DNA of 56,666 nucleotides from contig JAITKM010000013.1 of assembly GCA_031278395.1 (NCBI GenBank), positions 1 to 56,666 of the forward strand, read 5' to 3'. The position numbers and the translations under genes are program-made. The notes below the pieces were generated by a model. That model saw only the letters and a list, made by a program, of their open reading frames with translations. It did not search any database and had not been told where the DNA came from. The DNA comes from Deltaproteobacteria bacterium. Its GTDB lineage: Bacteria; Bdellovibrionota_C; UBA2361; SZUA-149; JAITKM01. Every line of letters begins with the position of its first letter. Position 1 is the first letter of the stretch. Shown one piece after another: positions 405 to 56,666 of the stretch.

Positions 405-545
405 TCTGTTTTTTTTCTGGTACAGGGTTACTTTTATTTTTATACTTTTTTAGAAATTACAAAATAATTTAGAGAGTTACGTTTGTTTAATGTATGAAAA
501 AACTAATAAATAAAGTAACCCCATACCAGCGAAACCAGCGAAATA
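405..545. mobile_element. MITE-like palindromic repeat element, copy A
   Basis: The left terminus TTTTTTCTGGTACAGGGTTACTTTT (about 411-436) and the right terminus AAAGTAACCCCATACCAG (512-529) are inverted copies of each other. They flank an AT-rich core of about 75 bp. The right terminus is followed by the tandem ACCAGCGAA ACCAGCGAA. The core is about 80% identical to the core at 51663-51740. Confidence 0.8.
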
Positions 546-9453: not shown

Positions 9454-9934
9454 TGTTGCTCTCTTTTATTTTGTTGCCAAGTTTAACCTAAAAAATACGG
9501 CGAACGTGTATCATAATTTAAGGTGATATAAAAATATCTATAAATTAATGTAGTTATAAAGTGAAAAAAATAGCATGATTAAGCTATGTTAGCAAGCTTT
9601 TGGCTTATATATGCAACTGCTAATTTATTCTGAGTAACCAATTACCGCCCCGCATTTTTTTATTCGCAAAGCAAATAAAAAATATCTTTCAGTCTATTCC
9701 AGGCGGGGAGCTTTAAATCATCCTGACTATTTGTAGTTTTGTCTTTTAATATTCGTCTCCAGATTATCTATAGTTTTTATTTTTTGAGATAAAACCACAA
9801 ATTATCGTGATGTAAATCTTCTTTGTATTTTTTGTCTAACAAAAATGCAGGGTGGTAAATTGTTTAGAGAACGAACGGTTACTTTATATTCGCAACTTGC
9901 AAGATATAAATTTATATGTTAGCGAAAGTCCCCA

Positions 9935-23442: not shown

Positions 23443-23580
23443 CGATGCTGACCAATAGTATGTTTAACTAACGTCGTTAATATTAAAAAAGTATGGTAAA
23501 GTAGTCGCCGAACATACTTGTTTGGAATGGATAAAGCAACAAAATCACACTTCTGCTGCTGATCTATTCTGGTTGACTAT

Positions 23581-23760
23581 TTCTGGAGAAAAAAATAAAA
23601 AAATTCTGGAAATTCTGGTATGGGGTTACTTTATTTATTATCTTTTTTATAATTTGTTAAAACTACAATATATTGAATTTATTTGTTATTCTTTGAAAAA
23701 AAATTAAAAGTTTATATTTAAAAGTAACCCCATACCAGATGACCAGATGAATCCAGAGCT
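23581..23760. mobile_element. MITE-like palindromic repeat element, copy B
   Basis: Left arm TTCTGGA x3 then TGGTATGGGGTTACTTT (23617-23633). AT-rich core of about 85 bp. Right terminus AAAGTAACCCCATACCA (23721-23737), followed by ACCAGATG ACCAGATGA ATCCAGAG. Overlaps the spurious ORF 23522..23707. Confidence 0.8.
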
Positions 23761-23817
23761 ATTAACATCTTAAATTTATGTATTATTCTTTAGATTTGGT
23801 CTTTATGTGAAAGTATA

Positions 23818-23866
23818 TGAAATAACCCTGTACCAAAGAAAACCCCAAAGAAAACCAAAGAAAAAT
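23818..23866. repeat. Solo element terminus (AATAACCCTGTACCA) followed by 3x tandem CCAAAGAAAA(CC)
   Basis: Read directly: gaaataaccctgtaccaaagaaaaccccaaagaaaaccaaagaaaaa. Confidence 0.7.
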
Positions 23867-24104
23867 AAATCACAATTTTTTGAGGTATTTCCCTTGATTT
23901 TTAGTAAAAAATTCTATACTGAACTGCTGCTTAAATTTATTATATTTTAGTAGAAGTGCGTATTTGTTTCTCTGTTATAGAGTAATTTTAGTGATTTTAT
24001 AATAGGGAAACAAAATTCTTGAAAAAGGTTTTATGTTCCTTTGTTGAATTTCTAGTTTTCGCGGAAAACTTGTTTATTCAATAAATTTAGTTTTTGAAAA
24101 AGGA

Positions 24105-28330: not shown

Positions 28331-28352
28331 ATTTCTGGTATGGGGTTATTTC
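28331..28352. repeat. Solo element terminus (ATTTCTGGTATGGGGTTATTT)
   Basis: Read directly. It lies in the 141-bp gap between the SPFH gene and the upstream methyltransferase gene. Confidence 0.65.
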
Positions 28353-28401: not shown

Positions 28402-29853
28402 TCAGCTAGTTAAGGCAATTTCTTTGAAAAAGGCGAGAATATCTTCAATTTCATTGAGTGTAAGCTCAGGAGTTAATTTTTTAGAAATGTCCTGAAGGGA
28501 ATTTGTAGCATCCAGAAGTTTGGCGACTTTAATTTCATTTGGGGTAAGTTTAACATATTCATGACGATAATTAGTTATCCAGTCTTGAGTTTCAAGCTGA
28601 ATTTTTACGTAAGGCGAGATAGGTTTCTTATCTGTCGAGCAGCTTAGATACAGATCTAATAGTTCTTGTTTAAATAATTTAAAAAGCTCTTCTTTAACTG
28701 AAGTTTCGAGAGTCATTCCTACTAATGGAGCTAGGCTTTTTATTTCTCTAGGGTTAGGCCATTCTTGAATTACAAATTTTAAAATTTCTTGAGTTACTTT
28801 ATTGCGGATGCTAACTTTTACACCTTGTGCGTCGTAAAAATATGTTTCACCAAAATTGTCCGACTCAAAAACAAGCTTGGAGCTAAGATAGCAATCTTCA
28901 ATTATGTCTAAATTTGGTTTACGATTTATTAGGGCTTCATTTTTACAAAAAAGAGTTCCGCGAAATGCAGTAGCTTGACAGAAATCCGCCTCTTGCTCAC
29001 AAGTTTCAATAAAATCATCGCTGTAAACTTCGGGATTCTTATTAAGATCTAAGTAGTTAATTCTGTTTAATTTACTATCGCCTAGGTATTTTAAACCGAA
29101 ACTTTTAATATGCTCAGTTAGTTCTTGAAAATAGAACGCTTGATTATGTTCTGCTAGAAGTTCGTAAAATATATAACCGTCACTTTGTTGCAGAATGTGA
29201 TTAATTTCAAAATTTAACCTTGCGGCTTGAAAGGGTAGGTGTTTGTTTTTAAAATTGTAATTTAAAAGAAAGTCACGAATTTCTTGAAGGTTTGTCTGGG
29301 TTGGAACAGATAAATTAGAAAATTTATTTTGTAGTTCATGTCTTAAGAAATTCCGAACTTCGAAGCCTGGTAGCACATTATAGCTAATGTAACAAACGCC
29401 GTTTGAGGCAAGTTGAGACGAGCAGATTTGCAAAATACTATCTTGGGTTGCAGTTGGAACCCAAGAGAAAACTCCATGAACTAGAATATAGTCAAAATCC
29501 TTCTGAGTTTGGCTTTGCCAGAGATGTTGTTCAGTCTGATTAAGATCTTGAGCAATAAATTTAATATTTTTTAGGTTTAAGCTTTGGACATGCTGGTTAG
29601 CAATAGCAATTTGTTCTTTAGAAATATCAACCCCGATAAATGAGCTATTTGGATTACTTAAAGCAACTGGAATTAAGTTACTTCCTGTTCCGCAGCCAAG
29701 CTCTAAAATTACTGCATTTTGACTTAAGAGCTTCGCTTTTAAACCAAATAATCTGGCAATTAAACACAACCTGTCAGGGTGTTTATCGTAGCTAGGTTTT
29801 GATATGTAGTTTAATTTGTTATCTATTTCTGGTATGGGGTTACTTTTAGACAT
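28402..29853 (-). CDS. Class I SAM-dependent methyltransferase with C-terminal extension
   Basis: 483 aa. Motif I VILELGCGTGSNLIPVA and the post-I acidic residue (GVDIS). About 300 aa of C-terminal unknown domain. The first 30 nt of the CDS (ATGTCTAAAAGTAACCCCATACCAGAAATA) are a copy of the repeat-element terminus. Confidence 0.7.
   Translation of the reverse strand: MSKSNPIPEIDNKLNYISKPSYDKHPDRLCLIARLFGLKAKLLSQNAVILELGCGTGSNLIPVALSNPNSSFIGVDISKEQIAIANQHVQSLNLKNIKFIAQDLNQTEQHLWQSQTQKDFDYILVHGVFSWVPTATQDSILQICSSQLASNGVCYISYNVLPGFEVRNFLRHELQNKFSNLSVPTQTNLQEIRDFLLNYNFKNKHLPFQAARLNFEINHILQQSDGYIFYELLAEHNQAFYFQELTEHIKSFGLKYLGDSKLNRINYLDLNKNPEVYSDDFIETCEQEADFCQATAFRGTLFCKNEALINRKPNLDIIEDCYLSSKLVFESDNFGETYFYDAQGVKVSIRNKVTQEILKFVIQEWPNPREIKSLAPLVGMTLETSVKEELFKLFKQELLDLYLSCSTDKKPISPYVKIQLETQDWITNYRHEYVKLTPNEIKVAKLLDATNSLQDISKKLTPELTLNEIEDILAFFKEIALTS
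29826..29847. repeat. Element terminus (TATTTCTGGTATGGGGTTACTTTT) overlapping the 5' end of the methyltransferase CDS
   Basis: Read directly. Its reverse complement encodes residues 2-10 (SKSNPIPEI) of the 28402..29853 protein. Confidence 0.7.
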
Positions 29854-29910: not shown

Positions 29911-29978
29911 ACTAACTTACCTCCCTCCCTGCATTTTTTACTCCGCAAGCAAAAATGCAGGGAGGGAGGTAAGTTAGT
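29911..29978. promoter_or_regulatory. Perfect 28-bp inverted repeat with 12-nt loop (ACTAACTTACCTCCCTCCCTGCATTTTT-TACTCCGCAAGC-AAAAATGCAGGGAGGGAGGTAAGTTAGT)
   Basis: Read directly. It has a GC-rich core in an AT-rich divergent intergenic region, 58 bp from the minus-strand methyltransferase start and 140 bp from the plus-strand methyltransferase-GT8 start. Confidence 0.6.
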
Positions 29979-30117: not shown

Positions 30118-31827
30118 ATGAAATTTATTCAATCAACTTCAACAGAAGAACAAATTCTTAATCGGCTCAATCCAGAATATATTCAGTATTCTGAAATGCA
30201 GCCTTTAGAACGAAGTTTTTTAAATACGCTTGTTTTAAGACATAAGCCTAAAAGAATATTAGAACTTGGAGTTTCAGCCGGTAGCTCCGCTGTGCTTATT
30301 TTGAATGCGCTTCAAGAAATTCCTGGTTCTAAACTCTATTCAATTGATTACAGCAGTAGTTTGTATAGAGACTTAACTAAACACGTAGGCTTTACAGTTG
30401 ATAACTATCCAGAACTAAAGCAAAACTGGCAACTTTTAACCAACGGACTAGCTTGCAAGTTTATAGATAATCTGGAGGAAAGTTTTGATTTTTGCTTTAT
30501 CGATACCGTGCATAAAGTTCCAGGCGAAATACTGGACTTCTTATTAGTTTTCCCATACCTCAAACAAAATGCAGTGATTGTTCTACACGATACTAACTTA
30601 CATACTATTAATAACTGCTATAATGATTTGAATAGTAACAATATGCTCATCAGTGCGATTAGTGGTGAGAAACTAGTCCCTAATTATGACCGTTATCTAG
30701 GTATGAGATTTGCCAATATTGCTGGAGTTATTCTTAATGAACAACAACAAGAAAATATTTGGGACATTTTTAATCTTTTACTCCAGCCCTGGAAATATAT
30801 GCCATCCGGCATAAACCTTAACAATATTAGAAAATATTTAGCCCAACACTATACTGATTATTTTTGCAACTTCTTTGATCGAGTAGTGAATTATCAAATC
30901 TCAAAGGCTAGTTGTAACCTAAACACAGAAATTTTATATATTCCCAAGCGCGCTCCTGCTACCCACAACACAGCTGCCGTAACTACTCAAGAACTAGACG
31001 AGCTACCTCCTTGTGTTATGGATATATTTTTTGCTGCTGATAATAATTATTCTCAATCCATGTGCGTTGCTTTAACCTCTATTCTAGTTAATTCTCGCCA
31101 AGAAGAAAATTTTAATTTTTATATCTTAGATGGCGGTATTCAAGTTGAAAATAAGCAAAAGATTGAAGAAATAAAAAATATTAAATCTTGTAATATCGAA
31201 TTTATTACAATTGATGGTTCGCTTTTTGATAATTGTCCTCTTGTCTCTGACTGTAGTCATATATCTAAAACAACCTATTACCGCTATTTAATTCCTGTCT
31301 TAAAACCAGAAATTCAGAAATGTCTTTACTTAGACTGCGACCTTGTAGTTGAAAACAGTTTAAGAGATTTGTGGGATACTTTTTTAGGAGATAATTACGC
31401 TGCCGTGATTGAAGACCGTGATCCGATAAATAATAGCAAACGTCTTAAAACAAAGGACTATTTTAATGCCGGTGTTATGTTGATTAACAACCAACAGTGG
31501 ATTAAGAACAATATTACTGAGGTCTTATTTAAAACAACAGTCGAGATGGAAGAACAAGGACTGATTAAATTTGTTGATCAAGATGTTTTAAATAAAGTCT
31601 TTGATAAACGTATCTTATTTATCCATCCCAAATATAATCTGCTAACATGCTCAATTTTTAAAACTAAATCGTTAAATTATCTGAACCGAGAGTTAGAGGA
31701 GGCACAAACTCAACCGATAGTTATCCATTATGCCAGCAATGTGAAACCATGGATTCAAAGTTGCTATCCACCATTTGGTCAGCGCTATTTTGAATATTTA
31801 AATTTAACGCCTTACCGGATTAATTAA
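30118..31827 (+). CDS. Bifunctional class I SAM-methyltransferase (TylF/CmcI-like) / family-8 glycosyltransferase fusion
   Basis: 569 aa. N-terminal RILELGVSAGSSAV...FDFCFIDTVHK (O-methyltransferase-like). C-terminal GT8 signatures DIFFAADNNY...YLDCDLVV...YFNAGVMLIN, as in LPS alpha-1,3-glycosyltransferases. Confidence 0.7.
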   Translation: MKFIQSTSTEEQILNRLNPEYIQYSEMQPLERSFLNTLVLRHKPKRILELGVSAGSSAVLILNALQEIPGSKLYSIDYSSSLYRDLTKHVGFTVDNYPELKQNWQLLTNGLACKFIDNLEESFDFCFIDTVHKVPGEILDFLLVFPYLKQNAVIVLHDTNLHTINNCYNDLNSNNMLISAISGEKLVPNYDRYLGMRFANIAGVILNEQQQENIWDIFNLLLQPWKYMPSGINLNNIRKYLAQHYTDYFCNFFDRVVNYQISKASCNLNTEILYIPKRAPATHNTAAVTTQELDELPPCVMDIFFAADNNYSQSMCVALTSILVNSRQEENFNFYILDGGIQVENKQKIEEIKNIKSCNIEFITIDGSLFDNCPLVSDCSHISKTTYYRYLIPVLKPEIQKCLYLDCDLVVENSLRDLWDTFLGDNYAAVIEDRDPINNSKRLKTKDYFNAGVMLINNQQWIKNNITEVLFKTTVEMEEQGLIKFVDQDVLNKVFDKRILFIHPKYNLLTCSIFKTKSLNYLNRELEEAQTQPIVIHYASNVKPWIQSCYPPFGQRYFEYLNLTPYRIN

Positions 31828-37559: not shown

Positions 37560-37597
37560 AATTATATATACAAATCTAGATTATATATACAAATCTA
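37560..37597. repeat. Tandem 19-bp direct repeat (AATTATATATACAAATCTA / GATTATATATACAAATCTA) upstream of the REC-GHKL gene
   Basis: Read directly. It lies between the pgpA stop and the REC-GHKL start. Confidence 0.7.
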
Positions 37598-40446: not shown

Positions 40447-40612
40447 TTTTCTGGTTTTTCTAGTTATTTTTTGGGGTATGGGGTATGAGGTTGTTTTATT
40501 TTTCTTATTTTTTAGTACCTTGAATATCTGCAACATAGTTAATTTATTTTGTATTTTCTTAAAAGTTAAAAAATAAAAGTAACCCGGTACCAAAAAAAGC
40601 CCAAATAAAAAC
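40447..40612. mobile_element. MITE-like palindromic repeat element, copy C
   Basis: TTTTCTGG...GGGGTATGGGGTATGAGGTTGTTTT (40473-40497), AT-rich core, then AAAGTAACCCGGTACCA (40576-40592) followed by an A-run. Overlaps the spurious ORF 40426..40614. Confidence 0.75.
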
Positions 40613-49476: not shown

Positions 49477-49519
49477 GAGAAGTAAGTTCTTATTAATGGT
49501 GTAGATTTTTTTTTAGATT

Positions 49520-49745
49520 TTTTTTGTTTTTCTTTGGTGCAGGGTTCTTTTTTAGCTTTTTGTATATAAAAAGCTATTAAAAGTTGTATAGTTTTTAGAT
49601 AGTAAAATTAAATAGTTATCTTTTAAAAAGGTAACACTATAACCAAGAAAGCAAGCAAAAATTTGTTTCATACGTGGATTATCATAAAAAGATTATAAAG
49701 TAACCCTGCACCAGAAATAACCAGAAATACCAGAAATAACTGCAG
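49520..49745. mobile_element. MITE-like palindromic repeat element, copy D (longer core)
   Basis: TTTCTTTGGTGCAGGGTTCTTTT (49531-49552), a core of about 145 bp, then AAAGTAACCCTGCACCA (49698-49713) followed by ACCAGAAATA x3. Confidence 0.7.
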
Positions 49746-51587: not shown

Positions 51588-51800
51588 GAATGTTGGGTAA
51601 CAAAATTAATACAATATCTAATCTAAATTAAAGTAACCCCATACCAACACTACCAACACTAACTTTTTACTTTTTTAAAAATTACAAAATAATTTAGAAT
51701 CTTATATTTATTTAAATCATGAAAAAACTAATAAACAAAGCACCATAGAAAACAACCCTACACCATAGCACCATAGAAACACATGTTCACCATAGAAAAT
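51588..51800. mobile_element. MITE-like repeat element, copy E (rearranged: terminus-core-degenerate terminus)
   Basis: AAAGTAACCCCATACCA (51630-51646) plus ACCAACACT x2. The core at 51663-51740 is about 80% identical to the copy A core. The right end is degenerate (AAAGCACCATAGAAAACAACCCTACACCATAGCACCATAGAAA), with CACCATAGAAA repeated 3 times. Confidence 0.7.
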
Positions 51801-52830: not shown

Positions 52831-52839
52831 TCTCCTCCT

Positions 52840-53121
52840 CCTGACCTCCTCCTTCCTCCTGGTACAGGGTTACTTTCATTTTATATTTCTTGATGACACT
52901 TTTAAAAAATACCAAATAAATCTAATATATTAATCAAGATACCTAACTAAAAATATGGGTAATACCAGAAAGACCAGAAAAGTAACCTTATACCAGAAAG
53001 AAAATTAGTGGTCAGTGGTTAGCACAAGAGTGGTTAGTGGTTAGTTTACATGAGAACCAGAAAGAAAATATTAAACAGAAATCTAGTGTTAGACCAGAAC
53101 CCTATACCAGAAAGAAAAAAA
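52840..53121. mobile_element. MITE-like element copy F plus cluster of solo termini and microsatellites
   Basis: CCTCCT-rich run, then TGGTACAGGGTTACTTTC (52860-52877), core, then AAAAGTAACCTTATACCA (52978-52995) flanked by ACCAGAAAG repeats. GTGGTTA is repeated 3-4 times at 53007-53043. A further terminus AGAACCCTATACCAGAAAG lies at 53096-53114. Confidence 0.7.
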
Positions 53122-53532
53122 AATTCTTGACTTGGCGAAACCTTTACTCTCGCCCCCAGACCCACCAAAACCTCGCTATGCCCTACATAACGATGTAATA
53201 ACTTAACCGGTAAATTCCAGCGCTGTTGCAAAAAAAAATCCTTTGTAGCTCTGGCAAACACTTATACTTTTGTGAATCAATCACGGGTATAAGTAAAATA
53301 AATCTCTTAGTCCTTAGTTTTTAAATATTTTTTAGGTTGTTTATTATCGTTTTTAGAGCATAAAACGGTGGTCGTATTAGGAGAAAAATTGTGATTTGGC
53401 AATAAAAACTTTTAGTTTGCGCTTGAAACAAAGTATGAAACGGACCCAAAATTGTTATGATAATGGTTTCTTATGGTTTAAAATTATTTTTATTTTTTGA
53501 AACAGATAATAAAACTACATCAAACTTAATTC

Positions 53533-53549
53533 AAAAGAACCCTGTACCA
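53533..53549. repeat. Solo element terminus (AAAAGAACCCTGTACCA + A-run) at the base-composition boundary
   Basis: Read directly. The GC-rich segment begins about 10-40 bp downstream. Confidence 0.65.
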
Positions 53550-53590
53550 AAAAAACTAACCTTTGCGAAACGTTACATTTGATCTTTGAT

Positions 53591-55862: not shown

Positions 55863-56465
55863 TTAAAGGTTTATATTTTTTACCCGAATAAAATTTGTTA
55901 GTGTTTCACGATTGACACGAAGTTTTCTGGCAATAGCGGTCTTACTATCACCACGCGCGAGCATTCGGCGCACGCTATTTTCTTTGCCTGTCAGTTTCAG
56001 ATATGAACTCTTGCTGCCGAACGGCCGGCCAAGAATTTGACCAGCCGCACGACGGGCGGCCAGCGCTTCCTTGGTGCGCTGGGATATGAGATTTCTTTCC
56101 AATTCGGCTGTAAGACCAAAGGCAAAGGCGAGGATTTTTCCCTGTATACCTGCGTCAAGGCGATAATTGTCTCGGATAGTCCAAATGTTCGCACCAATAT
56201 TCATACAATGGTTCAGAATGCCCATAATCTGTAATAAATCACGTCCAAGGCGCGATAATTCGCTTGAAATAACTATATCGTCTTTTTTGATTTTCCTTAT
56301 CAATCTGCCAAGTTTGCGCTTTTTTAGCTCTTGCCGCGAACTGATGGTTTCCTCAACCCACTCATCAATAACGATGTGCTGCCCAGCAACGAATTGCTCT
56401 ATCTCAAACCTTTGGTTTTCTGTTGTTTGCGTAGCTGTGCTGACCCGTATGTAGCCATAAATCAT
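55863..56465 (-). CDS. Small serine recombinase (resolvase/invertase family)
   Basis: 200 aa. Catalytic N-terminus MIYGYIRVSTATQ (Ser nucleophile), SELSRLGRD motif, and C-terminal HTH (SKTAIARKLRVNRETLTNFI). Confidence 0.85.
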   Translation of the reverse strand: MIYGYIRVSTATQTTENQRFEIEQFVAGQHIVIDEWVEETISSRQELKKRKLGRLIRKIKKDDIVISSELSRLGRDLLQIMGILNHCMNIGANIWTIRDNYRLDAGIQGKILAFAFGLTAELERNLISQRTKEALAARRAAGQILGRPFGSKSSYLKLTGKENSVRRMLARGDSKTAIARKLRVNRETLTNFIRVKNINL

Positions 56466-56530
56466 TTTATACTCCTTTATTTTTGTTGAACATGTGTAGT
56501 CTAAATCATTTTATACTTCTTTGTTTTTCT
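56458..56530. promoter_or_regulatory. 29-bp direct repeat pair (TAAATCATTTTATACTCCTTTATTTTTGT / TAAATCATTTTATACTTCTTTGTTTTTCT) at the recombinase 5' end: candidate res-like/autoregulatory site
   Basis: Read directly. Copy 1 contains the recombinase RBS and start codon. Copy 2, 44 bp further upstream, carries ATG-ATT-TAG (a start followed by an immediate stop). Confidence 0.45.
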
Positions 56531-56666
56531 TAAACAACAACTTGTATAAAATAAACGACCGTATAAATCCGCCGGCGGCGCGATGATTTTTAATCCCACG
56601 CTGGGTCGAGAAATACCGGCGGGGTGGGAAACCTTGAAATTAGAAAAGCGGTTCAATTTTGATAGA

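Follow-up and report, generated by a model that had tools for sequence, protein, structure and literature searches.

The window analyzed here is the whole 56,666-bp contig JAITKM010000013.1 of a Deltaproteobacteria bacterium (assembly GCA_031278395.1), and it carries repeated copies of a 17-nt box, AAAGTAACCCYRTACCA, beside which short tandem duplications are found. We determined that these tail duplications are real, that they start at a fixed base of the box, and that they vary between strains. The elements that bear them are REPIN-like doublets and singlets of a box family that belongs to a RayT system, i.e., to transposases associated with repetitive extragenic palindromes (REPs), and they are not MITEs (miniature transposable elements with inverted repeats) of the DDE type.

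Tandem duplications adjoin a conserved intergenic box

With up to 2 mismatches allowed, the box matched the window 13 times, compared with 0.03 matches expected from shuffles, and all 13 matches are intergenic. The box is built from a GTAA or GTAG tag followed by CCCYRYACCA. A preliminary description of this DNA had reported tandem repeats of a short CCA-initiated unit beside the termini of a dispersed inverted-repeat element. Direct reading and TRF bore this out; the sites are ends of such an element, and the conserved anchor is (T)(A)CCA at the box end. An exact tandem (at least 2 copies of 8 to 12 nt) starts 3 to 5 nt before the box end in 6 or 7 of the 13 boxes, whereas such tandems occur at 1.2% of random window positions and also at 1.2% of box-free intergenic positions; the excess over this intergenic background has a binomial P of about 4e-9. 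Furthermore, a separately made assembly of this sample (Logan SRR14710901) agrees base for base over 23443-24104, tandem units included. Given the enrichment at boxes and the identical second assembly, we conclude that the tail duplications are real and are not background simple sequence. The notion that they merely reflect the simple-sequence content of AT-rich intergenic DNA, or an assembly artifact, can point to spacers of 31% GC (the window as a whole has ~35%) and to many short tandem repeats in the window, yet it is exceedingly improbable: boxes have a rate of ~50%, compared with 1.2% for the remainder of this intergenic DNA, the signature also occurs with complex GC-rich units in other genomes (e.g., TACCATTCCCCGTCT x3), and the second assembly is identical.

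Not every unit kept the form in which it had first been listed. The arrays at 525-543, 49710-49740, and 51642-51661 stood as tandems, and the unit at 23734 proved to be 8 nt long, not 9. ACCAAAGAAA at 23832-23864 does come in about three copies (x3.1), but the array is imperfect, with 16% indels. Within 51741-51800, CACCATAG x2 at 51761-51776 is a tandem, but the other CACCATAGAAA copies are dispersed; likewise, there are three ACCAGAAAG copies at 52966-53000, but they straddle their box, two before it and one after, instead of following it. The mirror image described for the opposite arm is present as AAATTCTGG x2 at 23601-23618. The units had been called different in every copy, which holds for their last 3 to 6 nt, which are locus specific, but not for the first part of the tail, which is shared (e.g., TACCAGAAA in the window).

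Some of the boxes form outward-facing inverted pairs: 418/512, 23616/23721, 49534/49697 (the focal doublet, with a degenerate left arm), and 52860/52979. A fifth inverted pair, 40472/40576, is decayed, and the remaining boxes are singlets. Paired boxes are separated by an AT-rich spacer of 77 to 146 nt, and the doublets span ~110 to 240 bp. Folded as single-stranded DNA (ssDNA), they form a long hairpin whose stem is the two boxes, with z-scores of -2.9 (418/512), -4.9 (23616/23721), -3.3 (49534/49697), and -1.1 (52860/52979, the most decayed). Two inverted boxes, a short spacer, and one long hairpin characterize a REPIN, and the window doublets have all three.

Several other readings of the box were rejected. 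A coding reading (S-N-P-I/V-P) fails because stop codons precede most copies and both strands are used in doublets. Spacing and key bases misfit a sigma-54, ECF, or sigma-70 promoter. A mimic of the tRNA 3' end (ACCA) was discarded because ARAGORN found no tRNA and the box misfits the geometry of the T arm and acceptor. A phage origin was also dropped, as only 7 singleton matches were found in IMG/VR.

The left edge of the duplications is fixed, and the right edge is free

We pooled 21 nonredundant duplication events from the window and from 24 related loci, which are designated here by L numbers. Among the 16 boxes that are CGTACCA, TGTACCA, or TGCACCA in type, 13 have a left breakpoint compatible with position -5 (R|YACCA). 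All five CATACCA boxes, four from the window and one from L028, are compatible with -3 (TA|CCA). The exact two-copy part of the focal array (49710-49740) starts at -4; counted as three units, one of them lacking an A, the array is also compatible with -3. On the right, the breakpoint is free, with unit lengths spread evenly from 7 to 17 nt and a variable reach of 3 to 12 nt beyond the box end into tail and unique flank. Microhomology at the new joint is 0 to 2 nt in 20 of the 21 events. A 120-nt scan around 80 boxes placed the start of 14 of 31 tandem events at -6 to -3. Exact anchored duplications were present at 16 of 45 singlets and at 4 of 20 boxes with an inverted partner; because singlets carry them too, the hairpin is not required.

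Within a subfamily, ~4 to 12 nt of tail beyond the box are common to the copies, which then diverge. Shared tails include TACCAGAAT (two L028 copies), TACCATTCCCC (L012), TACCATTCCCCG (L016 and L082), and TACCATTAACTTT (L075a, L075b, and L154). The duplicated unit extends 3 to 6 nt past this shared tail into locus-specific DNA, as is seen among the L028 copies and between L016 and L082, which implies that each duplication was made in place, after the copy had arrived; local origin at each copy had also been suggested from the window alone. A staggered cut with a fixed target-site duplication, another early suggestion, does not agree with unit lengths of 7 to 17 nt or with arm flanks that are mirror images and not direct repeats. 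The same two features count against ordinary MITEs moved by a DDE transposase, with the units as target-site duplications or excision footprints. Although terminal inverted repeats around a short AT-rich interior and ends that read 5'-TG...CA-3' would suit such elements, ~10 nt of tail beyond the box is common to copies with different flanks, and no DDE family is among the 25 most frequent Pfam families of 90 box-neighboring open reading frames (ORFs), where Y1 genes are present. We therefore hold this explanation to be very improbable. A TA duplication of the IS630/mariner kind (CTGG-TA-[element]-TA-CCAG) was rejected on the shared tail as well, because it extends ~10 nt beyond the TA.

Copy number differs between strains, the comparison that had been proposed as a check. 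L075 and L154 have the element in common and left flanks that are 92% identical, and they differ by one 8-nt tail unit. L163 and L161/162 encode identical RayT proteins and have otherwise identical upstream spacers (186/186), from which a 41-nt block sets them apart. This indel consists of a 29-nt whole-box unit and a 12-nt tail unit, and the edge of the MAFFT gap is exactly CCCCG|TACCA. Gain or loss of tail units is ongoing between strains. Separately, L075 1-260 and L154 812-1080 share left flank and element and have unrelated right flanks, so that either the region was rearranged, with the element as breakpoint, or metagenome assembly produced a chimera at the repeat.

These data also bear on the possibility that selection has favored arrays of the (T)ACCA(G) units as additional binding sites, on DNA or transcript, for a protein such as the RayT C-terminal domain or a host regulator, with tandem duplication as the easiest route to more sites. 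ACCAG-like pentamers do recur near boxes despite differing spacers (23560-23620 and 52960-53115), and in GC-rich relatives AT-rich -10-like hexamers often lie 7 to 30 nt upstream of the box, so that tails may be transcribed. However, periods of 7 to 17 nt show no preferred helical phase, the spacers are exact copies and thus point to recent events and not to conserved sites, near-identical strains differ in copy number, the majority of boxes lack a duplication, and the purC relative (see below) has no elements at all. Phased binding-site arrays, which the preliminary description had raised, are therefore not favored, and selection for binding sites in general appears unlikely.

The box recurs in Bdellovibrionota-like genomes

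The identical 17-mer recurs in at least 8 other metagenome-assembled genomes (MAGs) of 42 to 57% GC, mostly labeled Bdellovibrionota or Bdellovibrionales. A scan of species-representative genomes with the bare 17-mer gave, among the matches listed, mostly chance singletons. Clusters of the 17-mer were found in Bdellovibrionota/Bdellovibrionales MAGs (L008/L056, L018, L028, L034/L059, and L082), in the unclassified Proteobacteria MAG AM_0240 (L057, L058, and L075), in a MAG labeled Dadabacteria (L031, L045, and L072), and in two other MAGs (L012 and L016). A metagenome scan added box loci L096/L154, L102, L118, L149, and L151; a scan of metagenomes for the paired-box pattern gave no match. Many boxes of these relatives carry like tail duplications with complex GC-rich units: TACCATTCCCCGTCT x3 (L016), TACCATTCCCCGACAT x2 (L082), TACCAGTGCTTTTA x2 (L018), and CCAGAATGTT x2 (L028). 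No Rfam family reached its gathering score in the whole window, and two sub-regions searched at E values up to 1 gave one chance-level microRNA hit. A literature search for the box sequence returned unrelated primers only.

The nearest purC relatives (50 to 57% identical, on short contigs) are without elements and are too distant to fix an insertion point; the one at 57% protein identity has none upstream of its conserved leader. As an observation on that leader, 23940-24104 and L093 410-610 have blocks in common (GTAGAAGTG... and TAGGGAAnCAAAATTCTT...AAGGTTTT) though PurC is only 57% identical, and no Rfam model matched. It may be an undescribed purine-related leader.

A RayT-type transposase gene is flanked by the box

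The 90 ORFs adjoining boxes came from 21 loci and were scanned against Pfam. Two of them, L149:19-1035 and L151:729-1766, carry Y1_Tnp, the IS200-like Y1 transposase domain, at 27 to 33 bits (cutoff, 23), and their products are 41% identical to each other. For both proteins the nearest NCBIfam family is NF047646 (REP_Tyr_transpos, REP-associated tyrosine transposase; E of about 1e-19), and the NCBIfam IS200 model gave only E = 1e-4. A database search returned ~150 relatives of ~331 aa, many of them named RayT by JGI and one labeled a Bdellovibrionales transposase by NCBI. Among 49 aligned homologues, H60, H62, W100, Y121, and N125 are invariant and P126 is nearly so. The HUH motif, the conserved W, and the catalytic-Tyr Y---NP motif, which together form the class 2 TnpAY1 signature, are therefore all present; Y---NP defines class 2 (TnpA-REP) proteins in Quentin et al. 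(PMC6006769).

The AlphaFold model (pLDDT of 90.4) had as its top Foldseek match 4ER8, the structure of TnpA-REP bound to a REP hairpin (E = 7.7e-8, TM of 0.76 over 152 columns, root mean square deviation of 2.5 A), followed by the ISDra2, IS608, and IS200 transposases (2XM3 and 2VJV among the matches). A sequence profile search likewise ranked 4ER8 first (E = 2.9e-4). The C-terminal ~190 residues (~145-331, P0017 family) are conserved, with invariant C266, W295, G298, and G307 and motifs RMWCIC and PPGLFPP; this region is confidently modeled, and no solved structure matches it. From alignment and model, the ~331-aa protein is predicted to be a RayT-type HUH tyrosine (Y1) transposase that forms a clade of Bdellovibrionota-like bacteria.

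In L151, L159 (homologue P0020), and L161-163 (P0022), 2 to 4 exact 17-mers lie on each side of the rayT-like gene, with the tag side of each box towards the gene and the tails outward. The neighbors of the gene are the same in L159 and L161-163: a methyltransferase, an M23 peptidase, and ftsX. Such conserved synteny is also a trait of RAYT genes. More distant homologues have the same layout with variant GTAG-tagged boxes, namely, AAAGTAGCCCTGCACCA (L164) and GTAGCCCCGCTCCAG on both sides (L157). In L160, eight tandem ~27-nt units with the palindrome GTAGCCGGGCTAC, the only palindromic variant of the box family, occupy 2714-2947 directly upstream of a 41%-identical RayT homologue, and an inverted copy lies downstream. 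A rayT-like gene with inverted flanking boxes matches the REPtron pattern that defines RAYT systems (PMC5581495, PMC8266576). Because exact 17-mer arrays flank the Y1 gene, we assign the boxes of the window to a RayT/REP-type system.

A proposed origin of the duplications by RayT nicking

We consider it probable that the box is the REP/REPIN-like recognition box of the RayT clade and that the tail units are local duplications made after insertion, most likely as by-products of RayT nicking at the box/tail junction. RayT would nick the tagged strand at a fixed position at the box end and stay linked to the 5' end. A polymerase would add a few nucleotides to the free 3'-OH, or a different 3' end close by would be used, and rejoining of the extended end to the enzyme-held 5' end would give a head-to-tail duplication whose left edge is fixed and whose right edge is free. 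From two units onward, slippage or recombination could alter unit number. The predicted cut is CCCCG|TACCA for a AAAGTAACCCCGTACCA box and tail and TA|CCA for a CATACCA box. Such steps have precedents in TnpA-REP, which cleaves ssDNA beside REPs and forms a 5'-phosphotyrosine link that another 3'-OH can resolve; the GTAG tag helps it to choose the site, and the freed 3'-OH could prime replication (PMC8266576). Two-site HUH excision with reinsertion of the unit was not supported, since the dinucleotides before the unit and at its end differ.

Several points weigh against this reading. The NCBIfam score of the two proteins, 68 bits, falls under the equivalog cutoff of 80 bits, and no Y1_Tnp domain occurs among the Pfam-scanned ORFs of the window, where the search for rayT covered the window only. 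The cleavage position is deduced from the duplication edges alone. E. coli TnpA-REP cleaves at C|T and requires the attacking strand to end in a 3' C (PMC8266576), whereas here we see G|T or A|C junctions and new joints whose 3' base may be T, A, C, or G. The single box, unlike classical REPs, is not a palindrome. An exact duplication is found at only about 30% of boxes, and a few larger duplications have other edges (L045 at -16 and L159 at -14), including starts 5' of the tag.

The main rival to RayT nicking keeps the RayT-type boxes and explains the duplications by replication alone: a polymerase stalls at a box that is folded or tightly bound by a protein, after which the nascent strand primes anew slightly further back, by a few nucleotides, without any nick. 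This would place a fixed edge at the boundary of the conserved, presumably protein-covered box, would yield the strain-variable copy number expected of slippage, and could draw on doublets that can form hairpins with their foot at TACCA. We nevertheless regard stalling as a rather doubtful source of the duplications, because a microhomology of 0 to 2 nt is too little for reannealing of a slipped end, within any one lineage the edge sits exactly at -5 or at -3 and is not spread over several bases, and duplications are equally frequent at singlets, which are unable to form the hairpin. Slippage had been among the first suggestions; on these data, classical slippage is unlikely for the first duplication, given the microhomology, and it is a probable cause of later changes in copy number.

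A stronger version of the nicking account is more tentative and less likely than not. The tail duplications would be in vivo scars of RayT, which would have nicked the box/tail junction; the 3'-OH would then have primed a short stretch of synthesis before rejoining. Genomes would then record the cut site and strand of the RAYT, RAYTs would make local tandem amplifications, and the clade would be a new REPIN-forming RAYT group across Bdellovibrionota with a nonpalindromic box and a novel C-terminal domain.

Relation to known systems

The system resembles REP/REPIN-RAYT pairs, such as E. coli TnpA-REP (4ER8) and the Pseudomonas REPINs, in its HUH/Y1 fold and Y---NP motif and in a syntenic, putatively single-copy gene flanked by inverted arrays of a GTAG/GTAA-tagged box. 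It also resembles them in a box that is dense in intergenic DNA as hairpin-forming inverted doublets and singlets, with clusters reiterated in tandem. It differs in that the single 17-nt box is not itself palindromic, the protein is twice as long and has a conserved ~190-aa C-terminal region without a solved relative, and the box is conserved at 17 of 17 positions across genomes of 35 to 57% GC. Micro-duplications with a fixed left edge, made of the last 3 to 5 nt of the box plus tail, were not found described in the literature searched. The classical REP is defined, within one unit, by GTAG/GTGG that lies 0 to 2 nt from a hairpin, on its 5' side, the stem having 7 bp or more (PMC6006769); here, the tag is present (GTAA/GTAG), but CCCYRYACCA is not self-complementary.

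Given a single box without palindromic symmetry, the closest description in print is that of TIRtrons/TIRYT, RAYT-like genes flanked by nonpalindromic terminal inverted repeats (TIRs) that share GGGGWSAS (Di Nocera et al. 2013, PMC3733652). Compared with this published consensus only, the reverse complement of the box, GGGGTTAC, has one mismatch, at the S position. The proteins are like TIRYT and subclass 2.1 in being long with a C-terminal extension, in the NHVH motif, and in a group prevalent in delta-proteobacteria (PMC3733652, PMC6006769), and some TIRs, like the boxes here, form moderately abundant dimer or cluster families. Subclass 2.1 (Quentin et al. 2018, PMC6006769) is a candidate placement for our proteins, alongside subclass 2.3 or a new subclass. 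Its members have a median length of 238 aa, and Quentin et al. reported no REP-like repeats for them, unlike the dense family of 13 boxes per 57 kb found here. On duplications, Di Nocera et al. mention only REP clusters reiterated with variable flanking DNA.

With IS200/IS605 elements (IS608 and ISDra2), the system shares the catalytic fold (Foldseek 2XM3 and 2VJV), ssDNA processing, and cleavage at a set distance from the recognized element. However, IS200/IS605 elements have Y---Q, a protein of ~150 aa, a multicopy gene inside the repeated unit, and subterminal hairpins without terminal inverted repeats, whereas here we find Y---NP, 331 aa, and a gene that is putatively single copy and outside the repeated unit. 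The window elements are like DDE-type MITEs (Correia/NEMIS, RUP, and ERIC; ~100 to 150 bp) in size, terminal inverted repeats, intergenic location, and interiors that may be promoter-like. They are unlike them in having no constant target-site duplication, no DDE partner found, a GTAR-tagged box, and an association with a Y1 gene.

The RayT/REPIN-type system is thus of a known kind, while this clade, its nonpalindromic and highly conserved box, and the position-anchored tail duplications were not found described in the literature searched. How RAYTs move and amplify REP/REPIN sequences is a question the field has yet to settle; evidence for RAYT-driven mobility "remains indirect" (PMC5581495), and REP dissemination is "poorly understood" (PMC8266576). 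The main value of the present finding is a concrete prediction of where RayT cuts in vivo: exact, anchored, strain-variable duplications give a testable cleavage site and a cheap readout of activity, in the form of tail-unit counts from population or long-read data. REPIN-like elements are extended to Bdellovibrionota-like lineages, and the data suggest cognate repeats for a long-form RAYT clade, a type for which earlier reports had listed no REPs. If the duplications are RayT scars, local tandem amplification could seed REP clusters and arrays like bacterial interspersed mosaic elements, instead of or besides long-range transposition. For annotation, the boxes break assemblies and can be mistaken for promoters, MITEs, or gene starts (29830-29853).

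Features of the window

The coordinates of the boxes and their tails are given in Table 1.

TABLE 1 Boxes, arms, and tail duplications in the window
Feature	Position	Strand	Evidence
Box, doublet 1 left arm	418..434	-	motif search; fold z = -2.9
Box, doublet 1 right arm	512..528	+	motif search
Tail duplication ACCAGCGAA x2.1	525..543	+	TRF, reading
Tail duplication, doublet 2 left arm, CCAGAATTT x2 on - strand (= AAATTCTGG x2 on +)	23601..23618	-	TRF, reading
Box, doublet 2 left arm	23616..23632	-	motif search; fold z = -4.9
Box, doublet 2 right arm	23721..23737	+	motif search
Tail duplication ACCAGATG x2.1, 8-nt unit	23734..23750	+	TRF
Single box, 2 mismatches	23819..23835	+	motif search
Tail array ACCAAAGAAA x3.1, imperfect, 16% indels	23832..23864	+	TRF
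Single box, no tail duplication	28336..28352	-	motif search
Single box, no tail duplication; overlaps first ATG of mechanically called ORF 28402-29853	29830..29846	-	motif search
Degenerate left arm with internal 7-nt tandem TGGGGTA x2.9 (40472-40491)	40472..40497	-	TRF
Box CCCGGTACCA, no tail duplication	40576..40592	+	motif search
Degenerate left arm TGGTGCAGGGTTCTTTT of focal doublet; T-rich repeats precede at 49502-49536	49534..49550	-	repeat search, TRF, fold
Focal box AAAGTAACCCTGCACCA, right arm of doublet	49697..49713	+	motif search; pairs with 49534-49550 in ssDNA fold
Focal tail array ACCAGAAATA / CCAGAAATAA x3.2, first bases overlap box end	49710..49740	+	TRF, 90% matches
Box	51630..51646	+	motif search
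Tail duplication TACCAACAC x2.2	51642..51661	+	TRF
Interior segment, 84% identical to doublet 1 interior (439-515)	51664..51740	+	repeat search
Degenerate box AAAACAACCCTACACCA with CACCATAG x2	51749..51776	+	TRF, reading
Box, doublet 4 left arm; tail is purine-rich GGAGGA run (52832-52860)	52860..52876	-	motif search, TRF; fold weak, z = -1.1
Box AAAGTAACCTTATACCA at 52979-52995, embedded among three ACCAGAAAG units	52964..53000	+	motif search, reading
Truncated box AACCCTATACCAGAAAG	53098..53115	+	reading
Degenerate box, 2 mismatches, no tail duplication	53533..53549	+	motif search

Among the Pfam-scanned ORFs, the window holds valS, recN, an AcrB efflux pump with partners, dnaB, purC, nusA-infB-rbfA, ogt, an outer-membrane beta-barrel protein, and a MatE pump, which is an ordinary chromosomal set.

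Some observations concern the boxes themselves. A Logan contig stops ~60 nt short of the focal box. The TGGGGTA x2.9 repeat at 40472-40491 lies inside a decayed arm, so that duplications occur in the box body too. As called mechanically, the methyltransferase ORF begins with the ATG at 29853 and reads M-S-K-S-N-P-I-P-E through the box at 29830-29846; its real start probably lies further downstream, and the site is a trap for annotation. For the box at 418, the downstream - strand frame from an ATG near 325 is full of stop codons. The ~590 nt of 53000-53590 have no + strand ORF of at least 80 aa and hold GTGGTTAG repeats and several ACCAGAAAG units, and no Rfam match was found there at E values up to 1.

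At the contig end (55863-56536), a 200-aa serine recombinase with a Resolvase domain lies in a stretch of 46% GC compared with 35% elsewhere, and its start codon lies inside a 44-nt tandem repeat (x2, 56450-56536); this region may be the edge of an acquired element. An invertible promoter flipped by this recombinase (55863-56465) was not supported as a reading of the box, because the box lacks the dyad symmetry of a crossover site and is also conserved where the genome has no such gene.

Other repeats lie apart from the boxes. A perfect 28-nt inverted repeat (ACTAACTTACCTCCCTCCCTGCATTTTT and its complement) with a 12-nt loop occupies 29911-29978, and a related half-copy is found at 9841-9871. 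On either side of the repeat, the methyltransferase gene (28402-29853) and a glycosyltransferase gene (30118-31827) start divergently, and because of this position the repeat is unlikely to be a terminator. Tandem repeats of 27 to 30 nt (2.7 to 3.6 copies, ~80% matches) at 85-193 are spanned by a 90-aa + strand ORF (8-280). Finally, an exact 19-nt tandem duplication, ATTATATATACAAATCTAG x1.9, lies at 37561-37597 in the spacer between two - strand genes.

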